A stretch of 64,000 nucleotides of DNA, from assembly GCA_035250975.1 (NCBI GenBank), contig DATFEP010000064.1, forward strand, positions 1 to 64,000. The letters are read 5' to 3'. Positions within the stretch are counted from its first letter, which is position 1, and the number at the start of each line of letters is the position of its first letter. Below, in pieces: positions 31,516 to 64,000 of the stretch. This stretch comes from Nitrososphaeraceae archaeon (lineage in GTDB: Archaea > Thermoproteota > Nitrososphaeria > Nitrososphaerales > Nitrososphaeraceae). The notes beneath the pieces are model-generated. The model did not search any database, was not told where the DNA came from, and saw only the letters and a list, made by a program, of their open reading frames with translations. The position numbers were made by a program, and so were the translations under genes.

Positions 31516-32007
31516 TTAGGATTCCAGAAATGATCTGAGCATCCAAGCCATCTTTTCATGTTCTTCCATTATTCCAGTCAAGAAATCTGTAGTTCCTGCG
31601 TCACCAAGTTGTTCACAAGTTTCTAAATCTTTTCGCAGTTGTCGTATAATAGTTTCATGATCATTTAACAATTTTTCAAGCATTGTGTTTGCATCTGGAT
31701 ATTCACTGGGATTTTCTTTTAATCGAGTTATTTGTAAAAATTCTGTCATAGTTGCTATAGTTTTTCCCCCGATCGATCTCACTCTCTCCGCTACTTCATC
31801 TACAATTTCAGATATTTGACCATATTGCTCGTCAAAAAATTTGTGTAGATCGTTAAATCGTGGATCGACTACATTCCAATGATAATTCTTTGTCTTTGTT
31901 AATAGTAAATATTCATCAGCTAGAGTAGCATTCAATATCCCAGTTATTTTTTCAACTGATCCATCATCTAGTCCTATCTTGATTTTTTTAGAAATAATAT
32001 TACTCAT
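31516..32007 (-). CDS. dps: Dps DNA-protecting ferritin-like protein
   Basis: NYHWNV, LHKFFDEQY, DEVAER, EKMAWML ferroxidase signature; ATG at 32007 preferred. Confidence 0.92.
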   Translation of the reverse strand: MSNIISKKIKIGLDDGSVEKITGILNATLADEYLLLTKTKNYHWNVVDPRFNDLHKFFDEQYGQISEIVDEVAERVRSIGGKTIATMTEFLQITRLKENPSEYPDANTMLEKLLNDHETIIRQLRKDLETCEQLGDAGTTDFLTGIMEEHEKMAWMLRSFLES

Positions 32008-32086
32008 AATTATAAAAAAGGTCAAACCACTAAATAAGTATTTGTCAAAAGTTAAATATTATTATTATATCAAGATTCTAACATTA

Positions 32087-32995
32087 TTACGGAATAAGAC
32101 TTAGAGAAATCAGTGTTCTCCATGATCTATTTTCAAAAACATGAGGATTTAGCCCTCTGATATTTACCTTATGAGACATTCTTTTTGATAAATATAGACC
32201 TAATGACCCTAATAGTCTCCACAACTGACTATCTGGATTTGATAGAAATGAATTCAATGCCAATTTTAAAAAAGAATATGTTGATCTATGGTTCTCCGAT
32301 ACATAATCTAACAGATGATCCTTTGAGGATGACAAAATGTAATGAGCATGTTCAAAAAGTTCTTTTTTGAGAGCATAATCAGTTTTTTGAATTTTTACCG
32401 ATCCGTTCAACATGCCTTCTAAAATTGAATCAAGGTTGTTTTCGGACTGAATAGTATTGATACAACGTCCAAGGGTAGATTCAATGTGAGAATCACTTCC
32501 TGCAACTGATATCATGTTTTTTTCTTTTGCAAATTTTTCAGCAGCGATATTAGAATAACTATCGATATTGTTACTGTTAAAAGATTCGATTAGATTGCAT
32601 TTTATTGCTTTCTCTCTTATTCCGTTCGATACAGCAAAAGGATGAGCTGCACAAGAAACTCCGTTTTGTCTTTTTATTTCATCGAGAGTTTCATCGATTG
32701 TCATTCCTGCTTTTATTGTTTTATTAATTCCATAAGCTAAAATATGACCTTTTGTATCAACTGTAATCTCTTCTGCAGGATAAATTGTTATGTTCTTATA
32801 TTTTTTGTGGTTTTCTTTGTAATCGCATATTTGTTTGTAACCATTAAGGGTGTTGTGATTGGTAACAAACAATATATCTATATTCTTCTCATAAGCGAAT
32901 TCTAGCTGCTTTTCTACAGTTACACCACAATCATATGGTATTCGAGTTGAACAGTTCATAAAATTAGAGAAAGTGTTATGACAATGTAATTCCAT
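32087..32995 (-). CDS. PHP-domain metal-dependent phosphoesterase
   Basis: LHCH, TNHN, AEE, GH, AHPF, GSDSH. Confidence 0.85.
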   Translation of the reverse strand: MELHCHNTFSNFMNCSTRIPYDCGVTVEKQLEFAYEKNIDILFVTNHNTLNGYKQICDYKENHKKYKNITIYPAEEITVDTKGHILAYGINKTIKAGMTIDETLDEIKRQNGVSCAAHPFAVSNGIREKAIKCNLIESFNSNNIDSYSNIAAEKFAKEKNMISVAGSDSHIESTLGRCINTIQSENNLDSILEGMLNGSVKIQKTDYALKKELFEHAHYILSSSKDHLLDYVSENHRSTYSFLKLALNSFLSNPDSQLWRLLGSLGLYLSKRMSHKVNIRGLNPHVFENRSWRTLISLSLIP

Positions 32996-33737
32996 TCTTA
33001 ATAACCGAGTCGTATCTAATAACCAGTAATCCTTAAATGGAATCTCTAATATATCGCTATCTGAACTCTATTCTTTAAAATATTAGTAATTTTTGATTAT
33101 CAAAGGTAAATTTTTCTGTATATCGAAGCAACACAATCTCTCGAAAATCAAGAATGTTGAAGGTGTAAAGGAAAATGCCATAGTATTTTACTATTGTCCT
33201 TGGCAGTTTTGTTAGATTTTCTTATTTTTATAAATAATATTTCTTAGTCTATTTTTATTTTAATTTTTATTATATCTTCTCTTGAACAAAGAGGTTTCTT
33301 TATATAAATGATCTATATATGCTATAATGACATGTTTAATATTTACTTTTGAAATTTTGAGATTGTTGTTAAAATATCTTAAGTTTCTTTTAATATGAAT
33401 ATATAGTTGTTCTTTGTCAAGAGTGGTAACTTTAAGCTGTAGTTTGGATTTATTTGTTTTATTTTCCACATCAAATGGAATAATTTTAATTTCTATAATA
33501 ATAGCACTTTAATTTGAAATCGGAGATTCTTGTTAATTATCCTATTTTTTCCCTATTCTATATCAGATATTTTCTGTGATTCCATAAATATTTCCTTTAC
33601 TGATTTTTTATCTTATTTTCATTTTTTTTAAATACATGTCCTAAACAGAAGCACATTTCGTTGAAGATATGTAAATATATTATAAAATGGTACAAAATAA
33701 ATCACGTAATGAAAAACAACGAAGATTTTTTATCTAT

Positions 33738-34775
33738 CTATCCACTGTTTTTGGCTAGAAACTTTACTAGATCCACTAGCCTGCATGCAAAACTCCATTC
33801 GTTATCGTACCATGAAAGAATCTTGACATATTTTCCCTTATTGTTTATTACCATTGTACTTAATCCGTCAACTATTGATGAATGACTATCTCCTATGATA
33901 TCAGAGGAAACAATAGGTTCCTCCGTATAAGATAATATATCCTTTAGATCCTCGTTAGATGCTTTCTTTAGCTCATTATTAATTTCATCTCTCGTGGCTT
34001 CCTTTTTTAAGTTTAGAACCATATCAGATATAGAACCGTTATTAACTGGAACTCGTAATGCCAGTCCATCAATTTTTCCTTCTAGTTCCGGAATTACTAT
34101 TCCTATTGCCTTAGCTGCTCCAGTAGTGGTAGGAATAATGGACATCATGGCAGATCGCGAACGTCTAAGGTCTTTATGATAAGAATCTAAAAGTCTCTGA
34201 TCATTAGTATAAGCATGTGTAGTTGTCATGTAACCACTTTCTATTCCAAATTTATCATTTAGAACTTTGATCACCGGGGCTATACAATTTGTAGTACATG
34301 ACGCCATCGAAATAATATTATGTTTTTGATTCTCATAAATTTGATTATTAACGCCCATAATTAGTGTCGCATCTGGATTTTTGGCAGGGGCGGAAATAAT
34401 TACTTTTCTTGCTCCCGCGAGTATGTGTTTTTGGGTATTTTCTTTGTCGTTAAACTTTCCTGATGATTCCAATACAAAAAATATGTTTAATTCCTTCCAT
34501 GGAAGCTTAGAGGGATCGCTTTCAGAAATGATATTTATCCTTTTATCTTTATTTATTATTAATACCTTATTAGTTTCGTCTATTTCAATATCTCCTTCAA
34601 ATTTTCCAAATGTAGAATCATACTTGAAGAGATGAGATAGTTCCTTTATGTTTGCAAGATCATTAATCGCCTTTATTTCAATGATATCATTAAATTCTTT
34701 GTCAAGAAGAGATGATTTTAGAAAGCTACGTCCTATTCTCCCAAAACCATTGATAGCTAGGTTTAACTTTAACAT
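33738..34775 (-). CDS. gap: glyceraldehyde-3-phosphate dehydrogenase, class I (bacterial type)
   Basis: INGFGRIGR, ASCTTNC, HAYTNDQ, IIPTTTGAAKA, WYDNE. Confidence 0.95.
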   Translation of the reverse strand: MLKLNLAINGFGRIGRSFLKSSLLDKEFNDIIEIKAINDLANIKELSHLFKYDSTFGKFEGDIEIDETNKVLIINKDKRINIISESDPSKLPWKELNIFFVLESSGKFNDKENTQKHILAGARKVIISAPAKNPDATLIMGVNNQIYENQKHNIISMASCTTNCIAPVIKVLNDKFGIESGYMTTTHAYTNDQRLLDSYHKDLRRSRSAMMSIIPTTTGAAKAIGIVIPELEGKIDGLALRVPVNNGSISDMVLNLKKEATRDEINNELKKASNEDLKDILSYTEEPIVSSDIIGDSHSSIVDGLSTMVINNKGKYVKILSWYDNEWSFACRLVDLVKFLAKNSG

Positions 34776-34863
34776 ATTACGGATACGACTATTCTTTCTA
34801 TTAAGGTATTTTCTAATTCAATCAATAAATATAATTTATTTACTAGATAATCACAAGAGCATT

Positions 34864-35334
34864 ATGAATGAAAATAAAAAATTTTCAAAAATTTTAGTTC
34901 CCATTGATGGTTCTGAACATTCATTTCACGCATCTCAAGTAGCCCTTAACATAGCAGAAAAATTTAATGCAAAAGTAATTTGTTTATATGTTATTGTAGC
35001 TCCATCGCCACAAGAATATGTTAATTTGACTGGACTTGTTACGCCAAAACAAATCGAAAGGATAATTGATAACGCAAAGGAAGAATCCAAGGACTGGTTT
35101 GAAAGGATCAAGAATTCGGCAAAGGAAGACAAGATGCAGATTGAAATAACAACAGAAGTTATTTTGACCGGTTTGGCTGCATATGGTGAAATAATCCAAT
35201 TTGCTGAAAAGGAAAATATAGATTTGATAGTTATTGGCACAAGAGGGAGAACTGGATTTAAAAAGGTACTGTTGGGTAGTACTGCATCAGGAGTAGTAAC
35301 TTATGCTCATTGTCCAGTTATGGTGGTAAAATAA
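34864..35334 (+). CDS. universal stress protein
   Basis: ILVPIDGS; GTRGRTGFKKVLLGST; ATG at 34864 (the longer ORF overlaps gap antisense). Confidence 0.92.
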   Translation: MNENKKFSKILVPIDGSEHSFHASQVALNIAEKFNAKVICLYVIVAPSPQEYVNLTGLVTPKQIERIIDNAKEESKDWFERIKNSAKEDKMQIEITTEVILTGLAAYGEIIQFAEKENIDLIVIGTRGRTGFKKVLLGSTASGVVTYAHCPVMVVK

Positions 35335-35995: not shown

Positions 35996-36475
35996 ATGAT
36001 AGGTGTACTAATCAAATATATGGATAAATTTACAAAGATACTAGCGCCAATTGATGGGTCAAAACCTTCTATGGATGCTGCAAATTATGCCCTATCACTC
36101 GCAAATAAATTTTCCTCCGAATTATATATCGTATCAGTAGTACCGTCTAAGGTAAAATATGGAGATTCTTCTGGTTTTTTCGGTATGGTTCCTCCTAAAT
36201 ACTTTGATAAATATAAAAAGGAAGCTGAAATATGGTTTGATGAAGTAAAAAAACGATTAGAAGACAGTGAAATTAAAAATATAAAGATAAATACAGAAGT
36301 AATAACAAGTCCACTTTCCATTTCTGGCACTATTTTGGAATATGCCGAAAATTTGAACATAGATCTTATCGTTACGGGAACCAAAGGCAAAACAGGATTC
36401 AAAAAATTATTAATCGGAAGTACCGCACAAGAAATAGTAACTTATGCACATTGCCCAGTATTAGTAGTTAGATAA
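35996..36475 (+). CDS. universal stress protein
   Basis: ILAPIDGS; GTKGKTGFKKLLIGST..AHCPVLVV; the start may be 36020. Confidence 0.92.
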   Translation: MIGVLIKYMDKFTKILAPIDGSKPSMDAANYALSLANKFSSELYIVSVVPSKVKYGDSSGFFGMVPPKYFDKYKKEAEIWFDEVKKRLEDSEIKNIKINTEVITSPLSISGTILEYAENLNIDLIVTGTKGKTGFKKLLIGSTAQEIVTYAHCPVLVVR

Positions 36476-36691: not shown

Positions 36692-37534
36692 ATGGACGAG
36701 AAAGAAGAAGTAATAGCTGAGATGAGACATGATGTAAATCTTACATCAAATGATGGTAAAACTCTTGTATATTCTATGCCTGAATTTAAAAACATTGTAT
36801 TGAAAGATCCTGTTTTGATTGCAGGATTTCCTGGTCCTGGATTGGTGGGTTCTATATCTGTAAATTACCTCATAGAAAAATTGCAGATGAAACAGATTGG
36901 ATGTGTAGAATCTGAGTTTATCATTCCTGGAGTTATATATTATGATGGAAGATTGAGACACCCATTTAGACTCTATTCAAATCAAGAAGGCTCCTTATGT
37001 GTACTAGTATGTGAAGCACCAATTTTGATAAGAGGAATAAGTTCCGTCTTAAATCTCGTAATGAAATGGTGTAATAATAATAACGTACAGGAAGTTCTGG
37101 TGCTAGGGGGATTTTCTAGACCTGGTCTGGATAATTCAAAGAGAGAACCCTATATATTTTCAAGTATAAACGAAGATAGCGTACAAAAAACAAGTTTTGA
37201 CAGAAAAATAATCACGACTTATCTAGAACCCACGACTTTTATCGGAGGAATACCGGGGGGTTTATTATCATCATCTCTTGCAAACAACATCCCATGTACT
37301 GCATTATTCATTCCCTCACGAGATGACCTCCCAGATGCGGAAGGTGCTGCCATCATAATAGATGAAATAAATAAAATAACTAAGGATGAAAAACTAAAAG
37401 TGGATACATCTCAATTGAGACAAGAAGGAGAAAATTTGAAAAAAAGAATGTTAGAATTTATAGAATCTCTCCGTAAAGAAGTTTCTCGCGTACAGAAAGC
37501 ATCGGGGGAGGCAGAGCCAATCATTTATGGATAA
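36692..37534 (+). CDS. PAC2 family proteasome assembly chaperone
   Basis: LIAGFPGPGLVG, HPFRLY, PDAEGAA; C-terminal IYG (HbYX-like). Confidence 0.88.
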   Translation: MDEKEEVIAEMRHDVNLTSNDGKTLVYSMPEFKNIVLKDPVLIAGFPGPGLVGSISVNYLIEKLQMKQIGCVESEFIIPGVIYYDGRLRHPFRLYSNQEGSLCVLVCEAPILIRGISSVLNLVMKWCNNNNVQEVLVLGGFSRPGLDNSKREPYIFSSINEDSVQKTSFDRKIITTYLEPTTFIGGIPGGLLSSSLANNIPCTALFIPSRDDLPDAEGAAIIIDEINKITKDEKLKVDTSQLRQEGENLKKRMLEFIESLRKEVSRVQKASGEAEPIIYG

Positions 37535-38062: not shown

Positions 38063-39250
38063 TTAGCGGCCCTCCATGAATCGTCGCCTCTTTCTGGTAT
38101 ACTTTAAGATTTCATCATAATCAGCTCTTTCTTGCGCCGCATTTAGTATATCGGTTTTACTTACAATACCAATCAGTTTGAAATCATCATCAACTACAAA
38201 TATTCTGTTCATCCTTTTTCGAACTAACTGTTCTAAAGCATTATTAACTTGCATGTCTGATTTCATAACTATCAAATTTGATAGTGGTTGCATGATATCA
38301 ATTGTTTTTTTTTCAAAAAATGATTCTCCTTTGTTTAAAATATCATCTGTTGAAACCATTCCGAGTAGCACGGAATGATCATCAGTGACAGGGAAAGATC
38401 CTTTCCTATATATATCAAAGTAATCTGAAATCAAATTTCTTATTGATAAATCAGGTTTTACCGAGACAAAACTTGTGTTCATTATATCCTTTAACCTCAT
38501 ATCTTTCAGGAGATTTGACATTTCAAACTGTTGCAGATATGATTTCGCCCCACTTTGAATAAACCATCCGATGAGTATTAACCATAATCCCCCAATTGGA
38601 GAGGCCCTAATAATCACTACAACGCCTAATCCAATTAGAACAAATGAGATGATTATTCCAACTTGCACAGATATTTTCGTTGCACGCTGATAATCCAGCC
38701 ATCGAACCAAGGCAGCCCTTAACATCCTTCCACCGTCCATAGGAAAAGCAGGAAGCAGATTAAAAGCACCTAACAGTATATTCACAATGAAACCATAAAG
38801 TAAAACTCCTTTCAATACTTGAAGGTATGTTTCTGCTTCTATTCTTTCGGTACTAATGAAATTAATTAAAAGAAAAAATGATAAAAAAATGCCTCCTAAT
38901 CCAAAACTTGTTAATGGTCCTATCACAGCAATTTTGAATTCTTTTCTGAAATCCCGTGTTTCCTCTTTAATCTCAGAAATGCCTCCAAATATAAATAGAA
39001 TTATTTGATCTACTTTTACTCCATATTTGGTTGATAGAATAGAATGTGCTAATTCATGGATCAGTACGGAAACAAACAATATAATGGCGCCTGAAATTCC
39101 CATCACAACATACTCTGTTCTCGTCAAGTTAGGATAATAGTGTGGCATAAATCCAACTGATAAGGTCCAAGTAAGAAAAACAAAGATAAAGATTAATGTA
39201 AAATGTAATTTTATCGGAATATTTTTAATTTTTAATATCTGTAATGACAT
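38063..39250 (-). CDS. site-2 protease (M50) with tandem CBS domains
   Basis: HELAH, GPLTS, FNLLPAFPMDGG, and a C-terminal CBS pair. Confidence 0.93.
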   Translation of the reverse strand: MSLQILKIKNIPIKLHFTLIFIFVFLTWTLSVGFMPHYYPNLTRTEYVVMGISGAIILFVSVLIHELAHSILSTKYGVKVDQIILFIFGGISEIKEETRDFRKEFKIAVIGPLTSFGLGGIFLSFFLLINFISTERIEAETYLQVLKGVLLYGFIVNILLGAFNLLPAFPMDGGRMLRAALVRWLDYQRATKISVQVGIIISFVLIGLGVVVIIRASPIGGLWLILIGWFIQSGAKSYLQQFEMSNLLKDMRLKDIMNTSFVSVKPDLSIRNLISDYFDIYRKGSFPVTDDHSVLLGMVSTDDILNKGESFFEKKTIDIMQPLSNLIVMKSDMQVNNALEQLVRKRMNRIFVVDDDFKLIGIVSKTDILNAAQERADYDEILKYTRKRRRFMEGR

Positions 39251-39925: not shown

Positions 39926-40345
39926 TTGACCGAACCTAAGGATATTTCAGCCAGTTATGACACTATATTAAAAGAAAGTGCTTTATTAACAACGTTCTCT
40001 GGAATTTTATTTGGATTCATATTAAATATTTCCATTAATCCTCCGATATCTTTTTCATACATTGATAAGGTTCTATTACTTATTGCATTGTATTCAATCA
40101 CCGTTGCGGCATGTCTTTTTGTCATGCCGATTATTTATCATCATATTCAATATCCATACCATGACTTTGAGAAGATTAGAAAAAGAAGTCATAGATTTAT
40201 ATTCACTGGACTTATTCCAGCCGGGGTAACACTGGTATTAGGTTTAGATATTGCAAGCTCAGCGTTGATTAACAGACCCGAGGCTTTTATTCTCTCGCTG
40301 ATACCAATCATAATGGTTCTAATATTATATATTAAAAGAAAATGA
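39926..40345 (+). CDS. DUF6328-like small membrane protein
   Basis: Four TM segments; ILFGFIL and P..YH pattern. Confidence 0.6.
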   Translation: MTEPKDISASYDTILKESALLTTFSGILFGFILNISINPPISFSYIDKVLLLIALYSITVAACLFVMPIIYHHIQYPYHDFEKIRKRSHRFIFTGLIPAGVTLVLGLDIASSALINRPEAFILSLIPIIMVLILYIKRK

Positions 40346-45493: not shown

Positions 45494-45701
45494 ATGTCGT
45501 TTAAAAAAAATTATCGCTTTTATGTAATTGGTGTGCAATGCATTACAGAGTACTATGGTAAAAATAGTAAAGAGGATAGACATTTTAGCATAATACAATA
45601 TTCCTAGACATCCTCAAAGCTGAATAATATTATCTTCTGTTATCCTATACATATTACTAGTTCTAAAAAAGTTAAATCCTGGAACTGACATTTTACGATA
45701 G

Positions 45702-47994: not shown

Positions 47995-48063
47995 TAATAT
48001 AGAACAATTGCTATTATTTATTAATGTAGATCTACGCTTTGAAATGAATTTAAATGAAATTTA

Positions 48064-54396: not shown

Positions 54397-56043
54397 ATGA
54401 AAAAAAAGATTGTCGATGCTACTGTTTCTCTTTCAGAAATTAATGACAATAGTGTAGTAGCAATTTCTGGTTTCAATATGGCTATTACGCCAGAATACTT
54501 AATTCTGGAATTGTACAGAAAATATGTTGAGGAAGGACATCCTAAGAATATATTTATTATCTCAGATGCACTGCCGGCTATCCCCGGCAGAGCGATAGAT
54601 AAAATTGCTGAGCCCCTATATAATGATCTCAACCAAAAGTTTCTGCGGGGAATATTGATGCCTTTTTTGGGTTTTTCTCCATGGCTTCAAAAGATGGTAC
54701 ACGAAGACAGGATTGAATACTATGGCTGGCCAATAGGGATTACTGCGTATTGGTTTAGAGAGATCGCATCTGGAAGACCAGGACTTTTAACAAAAATCGG
54801 TATAGACACATTTTTGGATCCAAGAAGAGAGGGAGCTGCATTAAATGAACTTGGTAAGAAAAATGCATCCTGCAAAGTTAGTGTTTTAGATATTGATGGA
54901 GCAGAATGGCTGTTATATCAGGCTCCAAAACCTAATTGTTCCTTTATAAGAGCATCAACGTCTGACGAAGCAGGTAATTTGTCGATGGAAGATGAAGGTA
55001 TAAGAGGAACCATCCTCAGTATTGCACAAGCTACTAAAGCAAGCCCACATCAAGGGACTGTTATTGCACAAGTAAAATGGATCACACGATCGGGCTCGAT
55101 TAATCCAAGGGATGTTGATGTGCCTGGTCCATTGGTTGATTATGTTATAGTATCTCCAAAAAAATATCACTGGCAGAGCGGAAATATTGAATTTGATCCC
55201 AGAATATCATATAAAATACTTCCCTCATTAACAGATACATTGTTTTATGGTCTTCCCAAAGTATCTATGAAAGCACACGAAAAAGTGATAGCAAGAAGAG
55301 TCATCTTAGAATTAGTAAGATTACTAGAAGAAAAAAATGCACCAGTATTGGTTAACTTGGGAATAGGCATACCGGCTTTTGTTTCTTCTATAGCAGCTGA
55401 AGAGGAGGTATCGGAATTTATTATATCTGTACTTGAATCTGGTCAATGGGGGGGACTTGCTCTTTCGGGAAATGACTTTGGATTGGCAATCAGTCCATTT
55501 GCACTTTCAACAATTCCAGATGTATTTTCCAACTTTGAGGGGGGGATAATAGATGCTGCATCTCTTGGTTTTCTACAGATAGATAAGGAAGGTAATGTTA
55601 ACCCATCCATTCTTCCTAATAAGATATATGGACCTGGAGGATTTCCTGTTATTGCAGGTGGGGCACCTAGGACTTTCTTTGCGGGGTCTTTCACAGCAGG
55701 AAAAAGTGATATTATACTTTCAAACAAGACTATAAAAATCCAAAACGATGGACTAACATTGAAGTTCGTTGAAAAAGTCTACAAGATAGTATTTAGTGGA
55801 AAGCAAGCGGCTAAATACGGTCATACAATTCGCTATATTACTGAAAGAGCCGTCTTCAGGTTAACAGATCGTGGGATAGTTCTTGATGAGATTGCTCCTA
55901 AAATAGACATAGATAAAGAGATATTGGCAAAAATGGATTTTTTACCTATAATAGGTTCTAATCTCAGGACAATGGATGACAGAATTTTTGACGAATCAAA
56001 GATGAATATAAAAGAAGAAGTATTTCGTATTTTTAAAAAGTGA
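54397..56043 (+). CDS. acyl-CoA:acetate/propionate CoA-transferase (fused family I, YdiF/Pct-like)
   Basis: PGLLTKIGIDTFLDPR, NLGIGIP, VLESG (catalytic Glu), GPGGF, YITERAVF. Confidence 0.9.
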   Translation: MKKKIVDATVSLSEINDNSVVAISGFNMAITPEYLILELYRKYVEEGHPKNIFIISDALPAIPGRAIDKIAEPLYNDLNQKFLRGILMPFLGFSPWLQKMVHEDRIEYYGWPIGITAYWFREIASGRPGLLTKIGIDTFLDPRREGAALNELGKKNASCKVSVLDIDGAEWLLYQAPKPNCSFIRASTSDEAGNLSMEDEGIRGTILSIAQATKASPHQGTVIAQVKWITRSGSINPRDVDVPGPLVDYVIVSPKKYHWQSGNIEFDPRISYKILPSLTDTLFYGLPKVSMKAHEKVIARRVILELVRLLEEKNAPVLVNLGIGIPAFVSSIAAEEEVSEFIISVLESGQWGGLALSGNDFGLAISPFALSTIPDVFSNFEGGIIDAASLGFLQIDKEGNVNPSILPNKIYGPGGFPVIAGGAPRTFFAGSFTAGKSDIILSNKTIKIQNDGLTLKFVEKVYKIVFSGKQAAKYGHTIRYITERAVFRLTDRGIVLDEIAPKIDIDKEILAKMDFLPIIGSNLRTMDDRIFDESKMNIKEEVFRIFKK

Positions 56044-56144: not shown

Positions 56145-56807
56145 TTATACATACAAGAATTTTGAGAACCATTGTAAAGCCAACTTAGAAACTTCCTCTA
56201 GCGTTCCAGGTTCTTCAAAAAGATGTGTCGCCTTAGGAACAATTATCAATTTTTTATCTTTCACTTCTTTAAGATTTTCGAATGCATCTTTATTTAATTT
56301 TATAACTTCAATATCTTTTTCTCCAACTAGTAAGAGTGTTGGTGCTTTTACCTTGAAAAGTGCGTCATTTGCCAGATCCGGTCGCCCGCCTCTTGAAACA
56401 ATAGCTTTAATATTCTTATTATCTGCTGCAGCCACCAGAGCTGCAGCAGCACCAGTACTTGCACCAAAATATCCGATTTTTAAATCTTTTGTACTGGGAT
56501 TTTCTTGAATCCACTTCGTCGCATCATTCAATCTATCAGCCAAAAGTTTGATATCAAATCTGAAATGACCACTCCACATCTCTTCATGCTCTTCTTCTTT
56601 TGTAAGGAGATCAAACAAAAGTGTTGAAATATTACCATCTTGCAATGTTTGTGCTACATATTTATTTCTTGGACTAAATCGACTGCTTCCACTACCATGA
56701 ACAAAGAGAACTATTCCACTTGCCTTATCCGGAATTGAAAGATTACCTTCCAGTACTTTTGAACCAGAAGTAATAGACACACTATTAATAGCAGATTTTT
56801 TGGTCAT
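56145..56807 (-). CDS. dienelactone hydrolase-family alpha/beta hydrolase
   Basis: HGSGSSRFSPRN, GASTG nucleophile elbow, SRGGRPDLA, THLFEEPG. Confidence 0.88.
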   Translation of the reverse strand: MTKKSAINSVSITSGSKVLEGNLSIPDKASGIVLFVHGSGSSRFSPRNKYVAQTLQDGNISTLLFDLLTKEEEHEEMWSGHFRFDIKLLADRLNDATKWIQENPSTKDLKIGYFGASTGAAAALVAAADNKNIKAIVSRGGRPDLANDALFKVKAPTLLLVGEKDIEVIKLNKDAFENLKEVKDKKLIIVPKATHLFEEPGTLEEVSKLALQWFSKFLYV

Positions 56808-57086: not shown

Positions 57087-59375
57087 GTGATAATAAATTT
57101 AAATAACTTGAGAATATCTATTTCTGGAACAATACAAGGTGTAGGTTTTAGACCTTTTATCTATAGAATTGCAAATGAATCTCATCTTTACGGGTATATA
57201 CAGAATAAAGGAGATGGGATCGTAGAGATCTGCGTTCAAGGAAGCCAGAAAAATATTGAACTTTTCATAAGAAAAATGAAAAATGAGAAACCCGTCCTTG
57301 CACATTATGATCATATTGATATCATGGATCTTGATGAGAAAAAAAAATACAATGATTTTACCATAATTGATAGTTCCAAAACAAGATCAAAAACAGGTTC
57401 TTCAATCCACCCGGATATTTCAATATGTAAAAAGTGTACGATAGATTTTTATCAAAATAAAAGGAGATATCAGTATCCATTCATCTCATGTACCGAATGT
57501 GGGCCAAAATTTACGACATTAAAAATGTATCCTTACGACAGAACAAATACAACAATGTCAGATTTTGCAATGTGTAAAGAATGCGAATCTGAATATAATG
57601 AACCAAAGAATAGATTATTTCATTATGAACTAATATCCTGTACGGAATGTGGACCAAAATTTTCTATTGTAGATAACAAAGGTCATATTATCAATACCAA
57701 TGATCCCGTATCACTTTCAGCGAAATTGCTTATGGAAGGAAATATAATGGCTGTAAAGGGTCTTGGAGGTTTTCACGTCATAACATCATCCACAAAGTCC
57801 GAACCGATAATGAAATTGCGAAATAAAAAAGACAGAAAAAATAAACCTTTTGCGATCATGGGCAAAGATGTTCAATCCATAAAATCGTTTGCCTGCGTAA
57901 ACGATTTAGAAGAAAAAATATTAACTTCCATGACAAAACCTATTGTTCTATTAGACAAGAGTAACAATTATTTTCTTTCTCCTTTCATTTCACCGAATCT
58001 CCACAATGTTGGAGTTATGCTTCCTTATATGGGGTTACATATAATGTTATTCGAATCCATCGAAGAACCTGCTTTGGTTATGACCAGTGGAAACGAAAGT
58101 GGTAATCCGATAATAAAAGATAACAAAGAAGCTATAAAATCTCTAGGACATTATGTAGATTATTTTTTGATTCACAATAGAGAAATATTTTCGCGATGTG
58201 ATGACTCGATAATTAAAGTCATAGAAGATAACCCTATACTATTAAGAAGATCCAGAGGATTCGTTCCATCAAAGATCTCTTTTACAAAAAGTATTCCAGA
58301 TTGTATTCTAGCACTTGGTGGAGAAATGAACGTAGTATTCTGTATATTATATAATGAAGACTGTTTCATTTCACAACATATTGGAGACCTTTATAATCCA
58401 GATTCTTATTTATTTTTTAAGAGTACAATTGAACAAATGATGAAATTTCTAGATTTGAAACCGTCTTTTTTAGCATGTGATTTACATCCTTCTATGTTAA
58501 CGACGAACTTGGCTTATAATATTGCTCAGAATGAATCTAACGTCTTTCAAGTACAACACCATCACTCCCATATAGCCTCTCTAATGTCAGAACACAACAT
58601 ACAAGATATTATAGGAGTGGTGTGTGATGGAATTGGATATGGTTTAGATGGAAATCTATGGGGTGGGGAAATATTCAAATGCGAAAATGTAACAAACATT
58701 CAACGAATTGGACATTTAATTGAGCAACCCATGATAGGAGGAGATTTGGCGACACTAAACCCCTTAAGAATGGTCGCCGGAATACTATATGGCAAGGTTG
58801 ATGGTTTTGAAGATTTCCTATATTCAAATTTAACACGGTTCCGGTATGGACATAAAGAAATAGAATCCATCATTGGCAATCTGCAATCTGATTCATATTC
58901 CAAAACTACCAGTACGGGCAGGATACTTGATGCAATATCATCTCTACTTGGGATTTGTTATGATAGAACTTATGAAGGAGAGCCTGCAATATCACTAGAA
59001 TCAAGTTCAATAAATGGCAAAGATATTTTCATTGATCCAAAAATATCAGGAAATATTTTGGATACTACATATTTACTAAAATTTATATACGAAAACAGAG
59101 GTAGGCTTTCTCCAAGGGATCTCGGTTATTCTGCCCATTCCTATCTCGCAAATGGTTTAGGAGAAATTGCTGCAGAAAATGCACTGTCTACGGGTATCAA
59201 AGTTGTTGGGTTTTCAGGAGGAGTTGCACATAATAGAATTTTTACAAAAATCCTAAAAGAAGAGATTGAGAAGAGGGGGTTGAGGTTTCTACTACACCAA
59301 AAAATTCCACCTGGAGATGGAGGAATTTCTGTAGGTCAAGCTTATTATACTATGAATAAAATTCTAAATAGCTGA
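57087..59375 (+). CDS. hypF: [NiFe]-hydrogenase maturation carbamoyltransferase
   Basis: GTIQGVGFRPF acylphosphatase domain, two Zn fingers (CxxC..CTECGP), KGLGGFH, QHHHSH, GDGGISVGQ. Confidence 0.96.
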   Translation: MIINLNNLRISISGTIQGVGFRPFIYRIANESHLYGYIQNKGDGIVEICVQGSQKNIELFIRKMKNEKPVLAHYDHIDIMDLDEKKKYNDFTIIDSSKTRSKTGSSIHPDISICKKCTIDFYQNKRRYQYPFISCTECGPKFTTLKMYPYDRTNTTMSDFAMCKECESEYNEPKNRLFHYELISCTECGPKFSIVDNKGHIINTNDPVSLSAKLLMEGNIMAVKGLGGFHVITSSTKSEPIMKLRNKKDRKNKPFAIMGKDVQSIKSFACVNDLEEKILTSMTKPIVLLDKSNNYFLSPFISPNLHNVGVMLPYMGLHIMLFESIEEPALVMTSGNESGNPIIKDNKEAIKSLGHYVDYFLIHNREIFSRCDDSIIKVIEDNPILLRRSRGFVPSKISFTKSIPDCILALGGEMNVVFCILYNEDCFISQHIGDLYNPDSYLFFKSTIEQMMKFLDLKPSFLACDLHPSMLTTNLAYNIAQNESNVFQVQHHHSHIASLMSEHNIQDIIGVVCDGIGYGLDGNLWGGEIFKCENVTNIQRIGHLIEQPMIGGDLATLNPLRMVAGILYGKVDGFEDFLYSNLTRFRYGHKEIESIIGNLQSDSYSKTTSTGRILDAISSLLGICYDRTYEGEPAISLESSSINGKDIFIDPKISGNILDTTYLLKFIYENRGRLSPRDLGYSAHSYLANGLGEIAAENALSTGIKVVGFSGGVAHNRIFTKILKEEIEKRGLRFLLHQKIPPGDGGISVGQAYYTMNKILNS

Positions 59376-59429
59376 TTTTTTATTATCTATAATCTTTATA
59401 GGCTAGATTTTCCTATCAATTCCAGGCTT

Positions 59430-59744
59430 ATGTGTTTGGCTTTTCCAGGCAAGATAACTGAAATAATAGGAGATTTTGCCAAGATAGATTTTGGTGGAGG
59501 TACTATGAGAAATAATATTAATATTTCCTACGTTGATGGTCAAGTGGGAGATTATGTTCTTATTCATGCAGGGTATGCAATCCAAGTATTGGACCTGGTT
59601 GAGGCCGAAAATATATTGAAATACTGGGTCGACAATACATCTTGGAAGTGTAACCAGTGTGAAATAATAAATGAATGTTACACCGGAAATTTGGTTAAAG
59701 AAGTAAAACAGATTAAACATAATAACTTGGGTTCGGAATCATGA
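59430..59744 (+). CDS. hypC: hydrogenase assembly chaperone HypC with a Cys-rich extension
   Basis: MCLAFPGK, VGDYVLIHAGYAI. Confidence 0.93.
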   Translation: MCLAFPGKITEIIGDFAKIDFGGGTMRNNINISYVDGQVGDYVLIHAGYAIQVLDLVEAENILKYWVDNTSWKCNQCEIINECYTGNLVKEVKQIKHNNLGSES

Positions 59745-60850
59745 TTCTAGAAAAGTACAAAGATCCCGAATTAGCAAAGAATATTACTGAAAAGATCCGT
59801 GAATATGCCGATTCGATAGAAGAGAACCTGCTTTTTATGCATGTTTGTGGATCTCATGAATGGACGATATCTCACTATGGCATAAGGTCGCTGATCCCTA
59901 AAAATATAGAGATAAGACCTGGACCTGGCTGTCCTGTTTGTATTACTCCAGCTGAGGATATAGACAATGCCATAAAGCTCGGTTTAGAAGGAAAAACCAT
60001 TTTAGTATATGGAGATATGTCAAGGTCGAAGGGATCAAAAGGAAAAAGCCTTTTAGATATAAGGGTACTTGGTGCTAAAATCAAGATAGTATACAGCATA
60101 CAGGAAGCCATATTATTAGCAAGAAATGACCCAACAGAAGACTTCGTCTTTTTCGGAGTAGGATTTGATACCACTGCCCCTCCTACTGCATTTGAGATAT
60201 TGAAAGGTTTACCACCGAATCTTGCTATCATTAATTCATATAGATATATGCCTCCAATAGTGGGTGCAGTTATAAAATCGTCTGTACTGGGTGTGGATGC
60301 CGTATTAAATCCGGGACATTCATCTACAATAACTGGAATGAAACCTTATTACAGATATTTTCTAGAAACTAGAAAACCTCAAGTCTTTTGTGGATTTGAA
60401 CCTATTGACATTTTATTGGGAATTCTAATTCTGTTAAAACAGATAAAAGATGGAAAGGCGAAACTAGAAAATGAATATCAAAGGTCAGTCACATGGGAAG
60501 GAAATAAACATGCTCAGAAAAAACTTGAAGATGTATTTGACCTAGACACAGGTTACATAAGAGGAGTAGCAAGTATTCCAGAATGCGGTTTTACGTTTAA
60601 GGAAAAATATAAGGATGTTGATGCATATGTCAAATATGGTTTATCAAGGCAAACAAATAATGAACATTTTGTAGCAGGAGCTCGATGTGGTGAAGTGATT
60701 TTAGGTCTTTGTGAACCTACTGAATGTCCGCTATATATGAAAGAATGTACTAAACAGACACCTAAAGGGCCTACGATGATTTCTCTTGAAGGCACATGTA
60801 GAATATGGGCTGAACATAATCTGATTAAATCTATAAAAAAACTTTCTTAA
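59741..60850 (+). CDS. hypD: hydrogenase formation protein HypD
   Basis: HVCGSHE, GPGCPVC, GFDTT, PGH, and a C-terminal Fe-S Cys cluster. Confidence 0.95.
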   Translation: MILEKYKDPELAKNITEKIREYADSIEENLLFMHVCGSHEWTISHYGIRSLIPKNIEIRPGPGCPVCITPAEDIDNAIKLGLEGKTILVYGDMSRSKGSKGKSLLDIRVLGAKIKIVYSIQEAILLARNDPTEDFVFFGVGFDTTAPPTAFEILKGLPPNLAIINSYRYMPPIVGAVIKSSVLGVDAVLNPGHSSTITGMKPYYRYFLETRKPQVFCGFEPIDILLGILILLKQIKDGKAKLENEYQRSVTWEGNKHAQKKLEDVFDLDTGYIRGVASIPECGFTFKEKYKDVDAYVKYGLSRQTNNEHFVAGARCGEVILGLCEPTECPLYMKECTKQTPKGPTMISLEGTCRIWAEHNLIKSIKKLS

Positions 60851-60869
60851 TATTCAATATTGATCTTTT

Positions 60870-61652
60870 ATGGCTTTTTTTATAGGAAATAGTTTTTGTA
60901 AACTTTGTCAAAAGGATGAAGAACAACTTGTAAGTGAATTATTTTACTGTACAAAGGGACTAATTAATAAGGGTTATTCGATAATTAAAAATACACTAAA
61001 TAGTGCACGACTCCCAAGTTGTGACGACTTTTATGTAACATATTTTAAAAATAATATATGGAATTCAGATATCAAAGTACTAAAAATAAATATAAAAGAT
61101 TGTTGTAATAATCATGAACAACCCACAAACGGTGTTGAAGTTGATAAAGGCGAAATTTTGCTACATACGAAAATATATCAAGCTCGTCCGGATGTCAATG
61201 CTATTTGTCATACAAGAAATCCATATTCGATAATTTTAGACAATGATACTTTTAAAAGAGTACATGGAGAAGCTACATTGATCTTAGGCGACATTCCTAT
61301 CATGGATATTGAAAATTTTTCTGATGAAAATAGAACGGTGAGCTTCATAGAAAAAATAGTTCAATCAACTATAGGCGAACCCCTAAGGCCTATAAGAACC
61401 GTAATATTATCAAACAATAGTGTTTTGGCTCTTGGTTCCTGCATACATGAAGCAAGAGCATTTACAGAAATACTGGAAGAATGTGCCAGATTTTACATGA
61501 TATCTAAAATTTTTGGCGGACCGCTAAATCTGCTTACACTTGATCAATTGAGAGGTTTGGGATCGAGATATGCAAGAGCCATAAAATTTGGAGGAAGGAA
61601 AATAATGTCTAATGCGAATCGTCCAGATGTTCGGATTAATAAAAATTTTTGA
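60870..61652 (+). CDS. class II aldolase/adducin-fold protein with a degenerate metal site
   Basis: E.LLH.KIYQARPDVNAICHT, LALG..IHEA....E.LEECAR; the usual HxH and NHG ligands are altered. Confidence 0.7.
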   Translation: MAFFIGNSFCKLCQKDEEQLVSELFYCTKGLINKGYSIIKNTLNSARLPSCDDFYVTYFKNNIWNSDIKVLKINIKDCCNNHEQPTNGVEVDKGEILLHTKIYQARPDVNAICHTRNPYSIILDNDTFKRVHGEATLILGDIPIMDIENFSDENRTVSFIEKIVQSTIGEPLRPIRTVILSNNSVLALGSCIHEARAFTEILEECARFYMISKIFGGPLNLLTLDQLRGLGSRYARAIKFGGRKIMSNANRPDVRINKNF

Positions 61653-62056
61653 AAATGATGCTAAAAAAAATTCTAGTTTTTGGTAATCCTTTGGTTAGAA
61701 GGGACAGCCTGCCTCTAAAATTATTAGATGATCTTAGAAATGAATTTCCTAACATAGAATTCAAAGAATTTGATTCAATTGAAGAGATACAAAATGAAGG
61801 GGATACTCTTTACATTTTGGATTCGGTAGAAAAAATAAAAAAAGTGATGGTAATAACCGATTTAGATCAATTGGCTACAGACAAAATATATTCGGTCCAT
61901 GATTTTGATTTAGCTATCAACCTCAAGATACTAAAGAAAATAGGTGTGATAAAAAAGATAATTATTCTTGGAGTGCCTATGAATATTACGCATAGTCAGG
62001 CATTACAAGAGATTAGAGAAAAAATTATATCCATTTCAATCTCAAAAAATGACTAG
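61649..62056 (+). CDS. hydrogenase maturation endopeptidase-like protein (HycI/HybD fold)
   Basis: ILVFGNPL..DS, YILDS, SVH, IIILGVP; lies in the hyp operon and faces a large subunit with a cleavable tail. Confidence 0.72.
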   Translation: MKMMLKKILVFGNPLVRRDSLPLKLLDDLRNEFPNIEFKEFDSIEEIQNEGDTLYILDSVEKIKKVMVITDLDQLATDKIYSVHDFDLAINLKILKKIGVIKKIIILGVPMNITHSQALQEIREKIISISISKND

Positions 62057-63302
62057 CACAACTCATACACGGATCGTATGCCCTTATTATTTTTTCAAGC
62101 TCATGATAAATAAAGTGTTTATCTTTGTCTAAAATGCTAGGTAAATGATTTTTTATATCATTTTCCATCTTAATTTGATTTTGTGCTGTTGGTATTACAA
62201 AGTTGGCAAATTGTACTTTTCCTTCTCTGTTAAGTTCAACCATATGATACAATGTACCACGAGGAGCCTCTATTACTCCAACTCCTTTACCTTCTCTTGT
62301 TTTAATTTCGGGAGGAGATTCGCGAGTAAATTCATTTTCTTCAAGAATTTGAATAGTATGATCTATACAATGTAGAATTTCAATAGATTGTGCAAGATTG
62401 TTATGATAAATATTATTTGATGGAAAGACTTTAAGGATTTCAGATATATCCTTTTTTGAATTTTTATGGATAGATTCTCTATTCAAATTTAACCTAGCCA
62501 AAGCTCCTACCATGTATTCTTTGTCCCTGAATCTAAATCCAGTAGCCTGAGAATACGGGATAATAATTCTTTCTAGGTGATTCCAATATTCATCTTCTTT
62601 TATTTTCATTCCGTCTGAAGAAGCGATCTCACCCTCCAAAAAACTAAAATCGTCTGTAACTAGAGATACGAAAGTGGATTCTCTGCTAAGGTCAAAATTG
62701 CATTCATAAAATATTTTTATGAGTTCAAGAACCGTATCTCTAGTTGCTTTAAATTCTGACAATAATTCTTTTAAATTTTCTTTTGAAGGTAAATGAGAAA
62801 ACTGTCCAACCTTTTCAAATGTTGGATGAACAGCCCTGCCAGCAACTATTTTCGAAAGATTGTTTCCAAGACTTTTTACATTGAAACCCTGTTTGATTAG
62901 ATAATTTTTTGTTTCATCAAAATCAAATACAGAATCTGTATTAAAAACATCAGGAAGACAGAAGAAGTACAAATGTAAAGCATGATCCCGTATCATCATT
63001 CCATATACAGATAACTTTCTTAATAATTCAGTTTGTTTTGTTGGTGTGATCTCGAGACATTTTTCGATTGATTCAATGCTACAGGTTAAGTGTGCTATGC
63101 TACATGTACCGCATATCCTAGAAACAAATTGTGGAACACTAGAAAAATGTCTATTTCTTACTGCTTGTGTATAAAATCTTTTATTTTCATTTATCTTTAA
63201 TTTGACATCTTCTACTTTTCCCTTCCTAATTTTTACTTCAATGTCTGCATGACCTTCTGTTTTACTTATTTGTTCTATATTGATATCGAAACTATCATGC
63301 AT
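62025..63302 (-). CDS. [NiFe]-hydrogenase large subunit, group 3b-like
   Basis: KTEGH, L1 SRICGTCSIAH, VGALAR, EAPRGTLYH, PTAQN, L2 RAYDPCMSCASH plus a 7-aa tail. Confidence 0.92.
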   Translation of the reverse strand: MHDSFDINIEQISKTEGHADIEVKIRKGKVEDVKLKINENKRFYTQAVRNRHFSSVPQFVSRICGTCSIAHLTCSIESIEKCLEITPTKQTELLRKLSVYGMMIRDHALHLYFFCLPDVFNTDSVFDFDETKNYLIKQGFNVKSLGNNLSKIVAGRAVHPTFEKVGQFSHLPSKENLKELLSEFKATRDTVLELIKIFYECNFDLSRESTFVSLVTDDFSFLEGEIASSDGMKIKEDEYWNHLERIIIPYSQATGFRFRDKEYMVGALARLNLNRESIHKNSKKDISEILKVFPSNNIYHNNLAQSIEILHCIDHTIQILEENEFTRESPPEIKTREGKGVGVIEAPRGTLYHMVELNREGKVQFANFVIPTAQNQIKMENDIKNHLPSILDKDKHFIYHELEKIIRAYDPCMSCASHFLRLKWI

Positions 63303-63774
63303 TTACAAGACCAAATTCCTTCATATAACCATCTAATTTTGATAGAAATAATTTTTCATCCATTGGACATCCCGAAATGAAATCATCAACATTTACAAAT
63401 TCCGAAATAGGAGATACCTTGTTTCTTTGTCCAAACTGCTCTAAAATATGGAAAATCTCATTTTTTGTCGAATCATCAAAGTAATTTCTTTGATTCGCTG
63501 GGCTTCCTGTACATGCACAACTTCCTATTGCAATTAATTTTTTTGAATTCTTCCTTATTTCTTTAAGAAATTCAAGCTCTTTGTCAGTTGAAATTGCTCC
63601 TTCTACAAAAGCCAAATCTAAATTAGTAAAATCGTTTTTTCCTTTGAAAGTTCTAAAATATTTAAAATCCAGTAGATCTTTCCACTTTAAAAAATTATCA
63701 TTCATTAATTCTATGAACACTATAGTACTGTCTTCGCAACATGTAAATGAAAACCAGCCAGTTTTGAGTTTCAT
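63295..63774 (-). CDS. [NiFe]-hydrogenase small (delta-like) subunit, short form
   Basis: GWFSFTCCEDS, AFVEGAI, IAIGSCA, VDDFISGCP; overlaps the large-subunit start; ATG at 63774 preferred over 63831. Confidence 0.85.
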   Translation of the reverse strand: MKLKTGWFSFTCCEDSTIVFIELMNDNFLKWKDLLDFKYFRTFKGKNDFTNLDLAFVEGAISTDKELEFLKEIRKNSKKLIAIGSCACTGSPANQRNYFDDSTKNEIFHILEQFGQRNKVSPISEFVNVDDFISGCPMDEKLFLSKLDGYMKEFGLVNA

Positions 63775-64000
63775 TAACACATTAGCAATAAAGCTATCGT
63801 ATTTAAAATAGTTCACCTTTTTGATTCCCAATTTTCATTTTAACATATTTGTTTTAGAAAATTGTGTTGCGACATTTTATTATTTAATTTACGTTAGTTA
63901 TCTTATTAAATTCTAAAAATCGATCATCTTAAATCTTGTTAACAAAAAATTATCTTTTTACAAAGAAATTTGAAAGAGTTCTAAATACTATAACTATAAT

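Follow-up and report, generated by a model that had tools for sequence, protein, structure and literature searches.

A conserved neighbourhood of putative stress sensors with an adjoining hyd2-like [NiFe] hydrogenase in an ammonia-oxidising archaeon of the Nitrososphaeraceae

Gene content of the island

The stretch of DNA analysed here, 64,000 nucleotides in length and referred to below as the window, stands at the start of a 104-kb contig (C15) in the genome of a Nitrososphaeraceae archaeon (G000; 2.49 Mb in 91 contigs, with completeness of 94.6% and contamination of 2.6%). From position 31516 to 63831 it holds an island rich in universal stress proteins (USPs) and CBS-domain proteins, ending in genes for a [NiFe] hydrogenase. 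The stress-sensor neighbourhood is real and conserved, as seen in the clustering of USP genes within single genomes and in their repeated adjacency to P-type ATPase genes. We read it, with moderate confidence, as a loosely organised stress or energy-limitation neighbourhood of nucleotide-sensor and effector pairs, onto which a separately acquired hydrogenase of the hyd2 type described from bacteria of the candidate phyla radiation (CPR) would have docked. Archaeal amoA is present in the genome, the nearest named relatives of which are metagenome-assembled genomes (MAGs) of Nitrososphaeraceae, and thus the label of ammonia-oxidising archaeon, proposed in an initial annotation of the sequence, holds.

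The content of the island was established from its open reading frames (ORFs) together with Pfam and NCBIfam profile searches, and motifs were read in the translations.

31516-32025, minus strand: Dps/ferritin-like protein (PF00210, 122 bits)
32087-32995, minus strand: PHP-family phosphoesterase-like protein (PF13263 PHP_C, 31.6 bits)
33738-34775, minus strand: type I (bacterial-type) GAPDH (TIGR01534, 437 bits against a cut-off of 367; also Pfam), divergent from USP1 with 85 bp between them
34861-35334, plus strand: USP1 (PF00582, 110 bits; G-2x-G-9x-G(S/T) motif in the translation)
35996-36475, plus strand: USP2 (PF00582, 99.5 bits)
36692-37534, plus strand: PAC2-family protein (PF09754, 112 bits), of a family that recurs beside the USP clusters of other genera
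38063-39250, minus strand: M50 site-2 protease fused to a CBS pair (PF02163 and PF00571; HExxH and NxxPxxxxDG in the translation)
39926-40345, plus strand: DUF6328 membrane protein (PF19853, 34 bits)
40546-42330, plus strand: PolX DNA polymerase with C-terminal PHP domain (PF14791, PF14716, PF14792, PF02811)
42571-43047, plus strand: USP3 (PF00582, 92 bits; ATP motif not canonical)
43148-44548, minus strand: flavoprotein of the CoA-disulfide reductase (CoADR)/NADH oxidase family (PF07992, 206 bits; TIGR03385, 432 bits, below the cut-off of 579)
45038-45598, minus strand: stand-alone CBS-pair protein (PF00571 in two stretches), divergent from Nramp; Rv2626c is 11th in its PDB search, E 4e-12
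45702-46976, plus strand: Nramp divalent-metal transporter (PF01566, 241 bits)
47140-47994, minus strand: cupredoxin-like protein (weak halocyanin/plastocyanin matches only; paralogues in the genome)
48766-51294, minus strand: P-type ATPase of type IIIB, MgtA-like (TIGR01524, 734 bits against a cut-off of 610.75; DKTGT), divergent from USP4 with 283 bp between them
51578-52042, plus strand: USP4 (PF00582, 108 bits); its second-best PDB relative is TeaD, a transporter regulator
52217-53221, minus strand: aminoglycoside-phosphotransferase-like protein of predicted kinase fold, COG2187-type (JGI names; HGDL..N invariant in the alignment; model and fold search)
53415-53981, plus strand: 188-aa protein with no family match in Pfam or NCBIfam, 90% identical to its counterpart in the relative G078
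54397-56043, plus strand: family I CoA-transferase, FadX-like (PF01144, 106 bits; NF052271, 276 bits, below its cut-off)
56145-56807, minus strand: dienelactone-hydrolase-like protein (DLH; PF01738), which bounds the hydrogenase core on the left in 4 of the 5 relatives compared
57087-59375, plus strand: HypF (five HypF domains)
59430-59744, plus strand: HypC (PF01455)
59741-60850, plus strand: HypD (PF01924, 388 bits)
60870-61652, plus strand: class II aldolase/adducin-like protein (PF00596, 58 bits), conserved within the hydrogenase core
61649-62056, plus strand: probable hydrogenase maturation protease (weak HycI match, E 0.008), found beside the large-subunit gene hydA in most of 46 loci, including those of DPANN and CPR
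62025-63302, minus strand: [NiFe]-hydrogenase large subunit (HydA), 3b-related (PF00374; both CxxC motifs; best NCBIfam and PDB matches to sulfhydrogenase alpha)
63295-63831, minus strand: truncated hydrogenase small (delta) subunit (HydD), 178 aa (PF01058, N-terminal part only)

The G-2x-G-9x-G(S/T) signature, by which the available part of PMC12159084 defines the ATP-binding type of USP, can be read in USP1, USP2 and USP4; USP3 deviates from it. Active-site motifs are intact in the translations of the M50 protease (HExxH and NxxPxxxxDG), the ATPase (DKTGT) and the hydrogenase large subunit, the two CxxC motifs of which read RICGTCS and DPCMSCASH. All of the genes that the initial annotation had listed are present, and family matches bear out the four USPs, the CBS protein, the M50-CBS fusion, the ATPase and its type IIIB assignment, Dps, PolX, the flavoprotein, GAPDH and the CoA-transferase. 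The list was nonetheless incomplete, for it passed over the PHP, PAC2, DUF6328, Nramp, cupredoxin-like, DLH-like, class II aldolase-like and maturation-protease-like genes.

The kinase-like protein (334 aa) had been named a COG2187 protein, and here the evidence is divided, since neither Pfam nor NCBIfam returns a match, while homologues bear the JGI name "aminoglycoside phosphotransferase family enzyme" and the predicted fold is of the same kind. An AlphaFold model built from a 19-sequence alignment (pLDDT 86.8) retrieves APH(2''), choline-kinase and ethanolamine-kinase structures in a Foldseek search (probability 1.0, TM 0.39-0.57). As modelled, the protein is a bilobal kinase fold with a catalytic HGD...N loop, the H214, G215, D216 and N221 of which are invariant in 19 of 19 aligned sequences. 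Its link to COG2187 and to Rv2004c we take, presumptively, from the JGI product names and from the name of the COG.

These genes form at least 14 transcription units on both strands, separated by non-coding gaps of up to 771 bp. The longest gap (47995-48765, from the cupredoxin-like gene to the ATPase) contains a short ORF fragment at about 48170-48355 on the minus strand, which has tblastx matches elsewhere in G078 and in two further relatives (G012 and G005) and may be what is left of a repeated gene. In several other gaps, of 400-740 bp, no gene is recognisable. Aside from that fragment, tblastx over the long intergenic gaps found conservation only with the relative of 95% identity. No Rfam match was obtained in 30000-64000 at E 0.1, and the sole tRNA gene (tRNA-Thr) lies at 21188-21263. 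Beyond the window, the island goes on with HypE, two small conserved ORFs, a second aldolase-like gene, a four-CBS protein and an AMP-phosphorylase-like gene, and also with VIT1, a rhodanese-MBL protein, another CBS gene, a second ferritin-like gene and an NDH-2-like gene.

GC content is even across the window at ~0.31 (range 0.28-0.36). From ArgRS to past the hydrogenase, the window is colinear with a 1.8-Mb contig of G078, the proteins of which are ~86-97% identical to those encoded here; this colinearity excludes the chimeric contig that the initial annotation had named as a possible objection. DNA nearly identical to the window occurs in sequencing runs of five further studies (word share 0.53-0.71), from wastewater, soil, wetland and outdoor metagenomes. 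In an RNA-library run from a soil metatranscriptome (X20), contigs 90-99% identical to island genes cover parts of the CBS, cupredoxin-like, MgtA, CoA-transferase, DLH and HypC/D genes. Close relatives' copies are thus present in an RNA library, which speaks to presence only and not to regulation, and the uncovered parts carry no meaning.

Two observations concern the flank of the island. The G078 orthologue of a 746-aa gene at window 23080-25320 (G078:C10:199080-201316) lies in three pieces with one TAG, possibly a pseudogene or an assembly error. Families adjoining the island are expanded genome-wide by tblastn, with 16 paralogues of the calcineurin-like phosphoesterase, 7 of the orf307 family and 8 of the orf131 family (weak DUF6659 match).

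Clustering of USP genes and their adjacency to P-type ATPases

Twelve USP Pfam matches occur in the source genome, nine of which are counted as stand-alone once two domains inside ~790-aa ORFs and one weak partial match are left out. Four of these nine lie within 32 kb (p = 0.0011 by a scan statistic over 20000 random placements). The densest 32 kb hold 4 of 11, 4 of 11, 5 of 22 and 4 of 10 USPs in G078, G012, G001 and G014, respectively (p 0.001-0.0016), and 4 of 15 in G139 (p 0.02), so that clustering is seen in all six genomes examined, namely the source and five relatives of three genera. The four island USPs share only 29-47% pairwise identity, USP1 and USP2 being the 47% pair, and are thus not recent copies.

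A second regularity is the proximity of USPs to ion pumps. Across the six genomes, a USP lies within 6 kb of 8 of the 18 P-type ATPase genes, where 1.02 would be expected (P 1.5e-5). The ATPases so placed span different subtypes and sizes and sit at separate loci inside single genomes, which one inherited block cannot explain. The source genome itself provides an example on contig C74 (11349-32397), with a second USP, a P-type ATPase that shares 30% identity with the MgtA-type pump, and four CBS genes; contig C55 (2180-11913) carries a USP and a CBS gene together with a PepSY-like gene and a member of the orf131 family, and the genome thus has several sensor-rich loci.

Within the island, the arrangement of sensors and potential effectors is repetitive: USP1 is divergent from type I GAPDH, USP4 from the MgtA-type pump and the CBS-pair protein from Nramp, USP3 adjoins the CoADR-like flavoprotein, and CBS domains are fused to the M50 protease. 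A complex prediction for the MgtA-type pump with USP4, folded without alignments, scored 0.00 and has no weight either way.

The hydrogenase module

The initial annotation spoke of a 3b-like hydrogenase with hyp genes. A 3b-related large subunit and HypF, HypC and HypD are indeed encoded, with HypE just past the window, but the enzyme has only two subunits and one of these is truncated. The large subunit is nearest to group 3b in PDB searches (E 3e-56, against 7e-43 for 3c and 6e-35 for 3d), and it falls far below the sulfhydrogenase equivalog cut-offs (269 against 700). The small subunit, with a best PDB match of E 8e-16, aligns to residues 3-149 of the 261-aa delta subunit and lacks the C-terminal half. 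No beta or gamma subunit genes adjoin HydA/D here or in relatives, and the source genome has no match to ShyB and only weak, generic 78-bit ShyC-like matches. Judged by its sequence, the hydrogenase is not a canonical 3b enzyme; it appears to be a two-subunit, 3b-related form that fits the CPR hyd2 type. In the available text of its description (Jaffe et al. 2020, PMC7304191), hyd2 has a truncated small subunit with a mean of 164 aa, no consistent beta or gamma subunits, and an uncertain function.

The module has a core order common to four genera: DLH, HypF, HypC, HypD, aldolase-like protein, protease, HydA/D, HypE, a 92-aa ORF, a 124-aa ORF and a second aldolase-like protein. Its right-hand part, past the window at 63936-66373 of the contig (L001 936-3373), comprises HypE, the 92-aa protein with two CxxC pairs (Zn-ribbon or rubredoxin-like), the helical 124-aa protein and the second class II aldolase-like protein. 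The 92-aa and 124-aa proteins are candidates for maturation or electron-transfer partners of the hydrogenase. Canonical HypA was not found in the genome, in which a single sub-threshold match of 23.8 bits is the only trace. Farther along the contig (71670-75723, L001 8670-12723) lie the genes for a four-CBS protein and a 512-aa AMP-phosphorylase-like protein of the thymidine-phosphorylase family, a pair that also stands beside the hydrogenase in G005 and G048.

The trio of short delta subunit, alpha subunit and protease is also found in Aenigmatarchaeota (54-65% identity), Nanoarchaeota and Patescibacteria (44-48%), and at two such loci outside Nitrososphaeraceae the scanned neighbours are unrelated to hydrogenases. 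At one Aenigmatarchaeota locus (L043 8557-12151), the minimal hydrogenase has CorA and a rubrerythrin-VIT1 fusion for neighbours, and metal transporters hence accompany this enzyme outside Nitrososphaeraceae too. None of the DPANN and CPR hydrogenase loci gave a USP or CBS match by tblastn with window proteins.

A quick maximum-likelihood tree of the large subunit was computed from 41 rows, representing the window together with 40 loci out of 46, five rows being left out as partial and one for its stop; it is midpoint-rooted, and the careful search is unfinished. The 12 Nitrososphaeraceae HydA sequences are monophyletic (support 99); their sister group is three Aenigmatarchaeota (95), and both are nested among DPANN sequences. 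Patescibacteria proteins of like layout join the tree, which contains no labelled hyd2 references. This topology fits a single acquisition in the family followed by loss, whichever the direction of the putative transfer.

As far as the available part of a 2023 review goes (PMC10432482), group 3b occurs among ammonia-oxidising archaea only in the thermophilic Nitrosocaldus. A [NiFe] hydrogenase that appears catalytically intact in a mesophilic member of the Nitrososphaeraceae would be at odds with that account. In the papers examined we found no report of a [NiFe] hydrogenase in Nitrososphaeraceae, and full-text searches, which did not extend to subscription journals or to supplementary tables that may list these genes, gave nothing relevant to the combination of island features.

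Conservation of the neighbourhood in relatives

An anchor-gene search covered 151 Nitrososphaeraceae genomes and found the anchor genes to be patchy: HydA in 13, type I GAPDH in 44, the kinase-like gene in 51 and M50-CBS in 82, the last two tallies each including one genome flagged as unpublished (G077). Of 17 relatives' loci around the kinase-like gene, 11 have a USP within 10 kb by hand count, and in all 5 relatives examined USP or CBS genes adjoin the hydrogenase core.

Related islands are found in the complete, single-contig genomes of two other genera. In G001, five USPs share ~33 kb with a P-type ATPase that a stop interrupts, with M50-CBS and type I GAPDH, and with CBS proteins and a CoA-transferase. 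The same island (L101 and L102; L102 is G001:C1:1346001-1366000) also contains two Hsp20 genes, a NAPRTase split into two ORFs, a PhaC-like hydrolase, a class V FBPase, VIT1, a starch-synthase-like glycosyltransferase, GH130 and an IS240-type DDE transposase. In G014, four USPs lie within ~27 kb alongside seven CBS genes and PAC2. Neither genome yielded a hydrogenase. The G014 island further encodes a protein that joins two CBS domains to a C-terminal C2H2 zinc finger (L100 6257-7099, G014:C1 ~1598257-1599099), possibly a nucleotide-sensing DNA-binding regulator, of which no counterpart is seen in the window.

Pairs of anchor genes were counted as near when they lay on the same contig within 40 kb, over the genomes with both genes (G077, secondary fragments and M50-CBS rows ranking below G032 are left out).

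Kinase-like gene and GAPDH: 9 of 24 genomes with both
GAPDH and M50-CBS: 9 of 29
HydA and kinase-like gene: 4 of 7
HydA and M50-CBS: 3 of 12
Kinase-like gene and M50-CBS: 2 of 31 (G000 and G078 only)

Because most assemblies are fragmented, these counts are lower bounds. Elsewhere in the family, sub-neighbourhoods recur in different orders, and in G012 the island is split over two contigs. The initial annotation had proposed co-occurrence and clustering in relatives as a check, and the outcome is mixed: USP clusters and sub-neighbourhoods recur, but the full set is confined to G000 and G078 and its proximity is not clearly above background synteny, as set out below.

An energy-limitation neighbourhood and its rivals

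The reading that we favour runs as follows. When the energy supply fails, for want of ammonia or of oxygen (the presumed inducing condition), the adenylate pool would shift. The USP and CBS proteins, with their putative nucleotide binding, would sense this shift and, acting after translation, might tune ion transport, regulated proteolysis and redox and central-carbon enzymes. Dps, PolX, Nramp and the flavoprotein would meanwhile protect DNA and the balance of metals and redox. The hydrogenase would form a separate module of ~10 kb (DLH, HypFCD, aldolase-like protein, protease, HydA/D, HypE, the two small ORFs and the second aldolase-like protein), gained once in the family and then docked in the neighbourhood, whichever the direction in which it would turn over H2.

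A number of results weigh against this reading. No regulator domain was found among island ORFs of at least 90 aa. An exact-word search of 24 curated upstream regions against 1849 others (8-10-mers, and 5+5 palindromic or direct dyads with gaps of 0-12), which was not of the degenerate MEME type and would miss degenerate motifs, yielded nothing beyond controls: the best k-mer, AATATGTTA (6 versus 19), was equalled by 17 of 150 contiguous-block controls, and its count takes divergent promoters twice and includes one overlap with the GAPDH start codon. The best dyad, TAAAT-N3-ATTTA, with three distinct sites, was equalled by 5 of 150 block controls, and with one mismatch allowed it is rarer than expected (21 sites against 27). 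A 7-9-mer search on USP genes only, in which the starts of five non-island USPs were set by rule and may be off, was matched by 159 of 200 random sets. The island is neither an operon nor, so far, a demonstrable regulon. The binding of sensors to their effectors is putative. The genomes compared are kin and the clustering tests not independent, so that the p-values across relatives overstate the case, and the USP clusters could in part be old tandem duplications, as the 47% identity of USP1 and USP2 would allow. The kinase-like gene and M50-CBS are near one another only in G000 and G078, and the full set therefore stands together only in that lineage.

Synteny is the most general of these difficulties. 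Four housekeeping genes within 26 kb to the left of the island keep 40-kb proximity in 30 of 64 pair comparisons over 12 contiguous relatives, and in 21 of 52 when only other genera are considered. Against this background, the conserved proximity of island genes is not clearly elevated (kinase-like/GAPDH 9 of 24, GAPDH/M50-CBS 9 of 29), even if, by hand count over the ten other-genus genomes of the control set, 6 of 8 island pairs with both genes present lie within 40 kb. With background synteny so high, conserved proximity alone proves no functional coupling, and inherited synteny could explain it. The arguments that survive this control are the within-genome clustering of USPs and the repeated, multi-locus adjacency of USPs to ATPases.

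In a rather doubtful alternative, the island is a hotspot of the flexible genome or a product of inherited synteny, where patchy accessory genes, perhaps the decayed cargo of mobile elements, gathered or simply stayed without functional coupling. The patchiness of every anchor gene, the varying gene order between genera, the division of the island over two contigs in G012, the high background synteny, the IS240-type transposase of the G001 island and the long non-coding gaps would all suit such an origin. So would the cargo: in the available part of Krupovic et al. (2019, PMC6563490), the cargo most often carried by thaumarchaeal integrated elements, integrases apart, consists of UspA, CBS-domain, Zn-ribbon and multicopper-oxidase genes, with UspA and CBS archaeal clusters of orthologous genes (arCOGs) directly after the integrases. 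Against it stand the absence of an integrase from contig C15 (three were found, on C13, C9 and C57), the lack of a tRNA-derived flanking repeat (the tRNA-Thr has no repeat on the contig) and the even GC. So does the occurrence of different ATPase subtypes beside USPs at separate loci in single genomes.

The initial annotation had preferred a different account, likening the island to the DosR regulon of Mycobacterium tuberculosis. The members of that regulon include several USPs, Rv2626c (CBS), Rv2625c (M50-CBS), Rv2004c and CtpF, and the Hsp20 and NAPRTase families also belong to it. By this account, which we think unlikely, the genes would make up a kit for hypoxia or dormancy, switched on together by low oxygen or NO in a DosR-like regulon, with the hydrogenase venting reductant as H2. 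The parallel in content is real at the family level: the DosR families are confirmed in the window, Rv2626c and Rv2623 are among the PDB relatives, USP/P-type ATPase and USP/kinase-like pairings recur, and the G001 island adds its two Hsp20 genes and NAPRTase. A 2026 preprint (10.64898/2026.08.10.744021), in its available part, also describes Nitrososphaeraceae ammonia oxidisers from deep paddy soil that it terms low-oxygen-adapted. The regulatory side does not follow, however. In the source genome, 94.6% complete as noted, there is no match to the GerE helix-turn-helix domain (PF00196), and none of its 12 receiver domains is on contig C15; no shared operator rises above controls in the exact-word search, just as the initial annotation had itself seen neither regulator nor operator. 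The ATPase is of a different subtype, literature searches yielded no expression data bearing on oxygen, and Dps, PolX, Nramp, the CoADR-like flavoprotein and VIT1 would fit oxidative or metal stress equally well. The fermentative 3b hydrogenase of M. smegmatis, invoked as the model for H2 production, has an NAD(P)-linked beta/gamma module that was not found here, and the Hyh-type mechanism cannot simply be transferred. The DosR or hypoxia account thus remains an analogy, in which content and some pairings fit and the tests for regulator and operator failed.

The protective genes just named invite the view that the island serves oxidative-stress and metal homeostasis, shielding an aerobe from peroxide and Fenton chemistry and managing Mg, Mn and Fe, which we regard as improbable. 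Dps, Nramp, MgtA, the CoADR/NADH-oxidase family flavoprotein and PolX would all have a place in it, as would VIT1 and the second ferritin-like, rhodanese-MBL and NDH-2-like genes just past the window. The available part of Abby et al. (2020, PMC7554672) lists Dps, PolX and uspA among the stress families in the evolution of ammonia-oxidising archaea, Dps having been gained by their ancestor and having since expanded in Nitrososphaerales. This view would, however, leave unexplained the genes for the hydrogenase, type I GAPDH, the CoA-transferase and the kinase-like protein, and oxidative stress is not the specific province of USP and CBS proteins. Chance or chimera as the source of the cluster is rejected by the even GC, the colinearity with G078 and the USP scan statistic.

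A bolder reading, to which we assign a low probability, proceeds by analogy. The island may represent an ancient nucleotide-sensor dormancy toolkit of soil ammonia-oxidising archaea, the modules of which would be the functional units that mycobacteria put under DosR, coupled in some lineages to a minimal two-subunit hyd2-type enzyme gained from DPANN-like archaea, by which an obligate aerobe could shed or take up reductant as H2 in anoxia. The modules so conceived, a set no less speculative, would be USP/P-type ATPase, USP/COG2187-type kinase and CBS/M50 protease, joined in some genera by Hsp20 and NAPRTase. If this were true, hyd2 enzymes would have a physiological role for the first time, and the persistence of these archaea in anoxic soil would have a genetic basis.

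The survival of strictly aerobic nitrifiers among the archaea through waterlogged, anoxic or substrate-free spells bears on nitrification and on the release of N2O upon re-aeration. The island offers a short, concrete list of candidate genes for this question, with related islands in the closed genomes of two other genera (G001 and G014), and the hydrogenase, if of the hyd2 type as its sequence suggests, takes that type beyond uncultured CPR and DPANN organisms.

Comparison with known systems

With the DosR regulon of M. tuberculosis and the Hyh hydrogenase of M. smegmatis, the island shares families (USPs, a CBS pair, M50-CBS, a COG2187-type protein, a P-type ATPase and a 3b-related [NiFe] hydrogenase) and similar local pairings, with a USP beside an ATPase and a USP beside a kinase-like gene. 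The likeness of the source CBS and USP proteins to Rv2626c and Rv2623 is at the family level only, as judged by PDB search. No DosR/DosS/DosT-type regulator and no shared operator were found in the source; its ATPase belongs to type IIIB, a different subtype, and its kinase-like protein has 334 aa (a longer fused form was not looked for). Compared with Hyh, the hydrogenase is without diaphorase subunits.

The nearest analogy for the USP4 pair may be the TeaD-TeaABC system, in which TeaD, a USP, regulates the adjacent transporter. In both cases, a USP of the ATP-binding type is encoded beside a transporter, and TeaD is the second-best PDB match of USP4. The partner here belongs to another transporter class, however, and its regulation by USP4 is only proposed.

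The thaumarchaeal integrated elements share with the source island and its relatives an enrichment in the same cargo families. They differ in that no integrase, attachment repeat or conjugation gene is seen here, and in that the present stretch is colinear with the chromosome of a relative.

As for the hydrogenase, the canonical 3b sulfhydrogenases, such as Pyrococcus SHI and the cytosolic hydrogenase of Thermococcus, provide the best PDB and NCBIfam matches of both subunits, and the CxxC motifs are kept. Those enzymes are heterotetramers with a beta (FeS) subunit, a gamma (FAD/NAD(P)) subunit and a delta subunit of ~260 aa, whereas no beta or gamma subunit was found for the source enzyme and its delta subunit is truncated. 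The resemblance to CPR hyd2 is closer, both consisting of a large subunit and a truncated small subunit (178 aa here) without adjacent beta or gamma genes, with 44-48% identity to Patescibacteria proteins of like layout. The closest relatives of the source enzyme are nevertheless those of Aenigmatarchaeota, at 61-65% identity; its host is a free-living aerobic ammonia oxidiser, and it is accompanied by HypC, HypD, HypE and HypF together with the conserved pair of aldolase-like proteins, DLH and the 92-aa and 124-aa ORFs.

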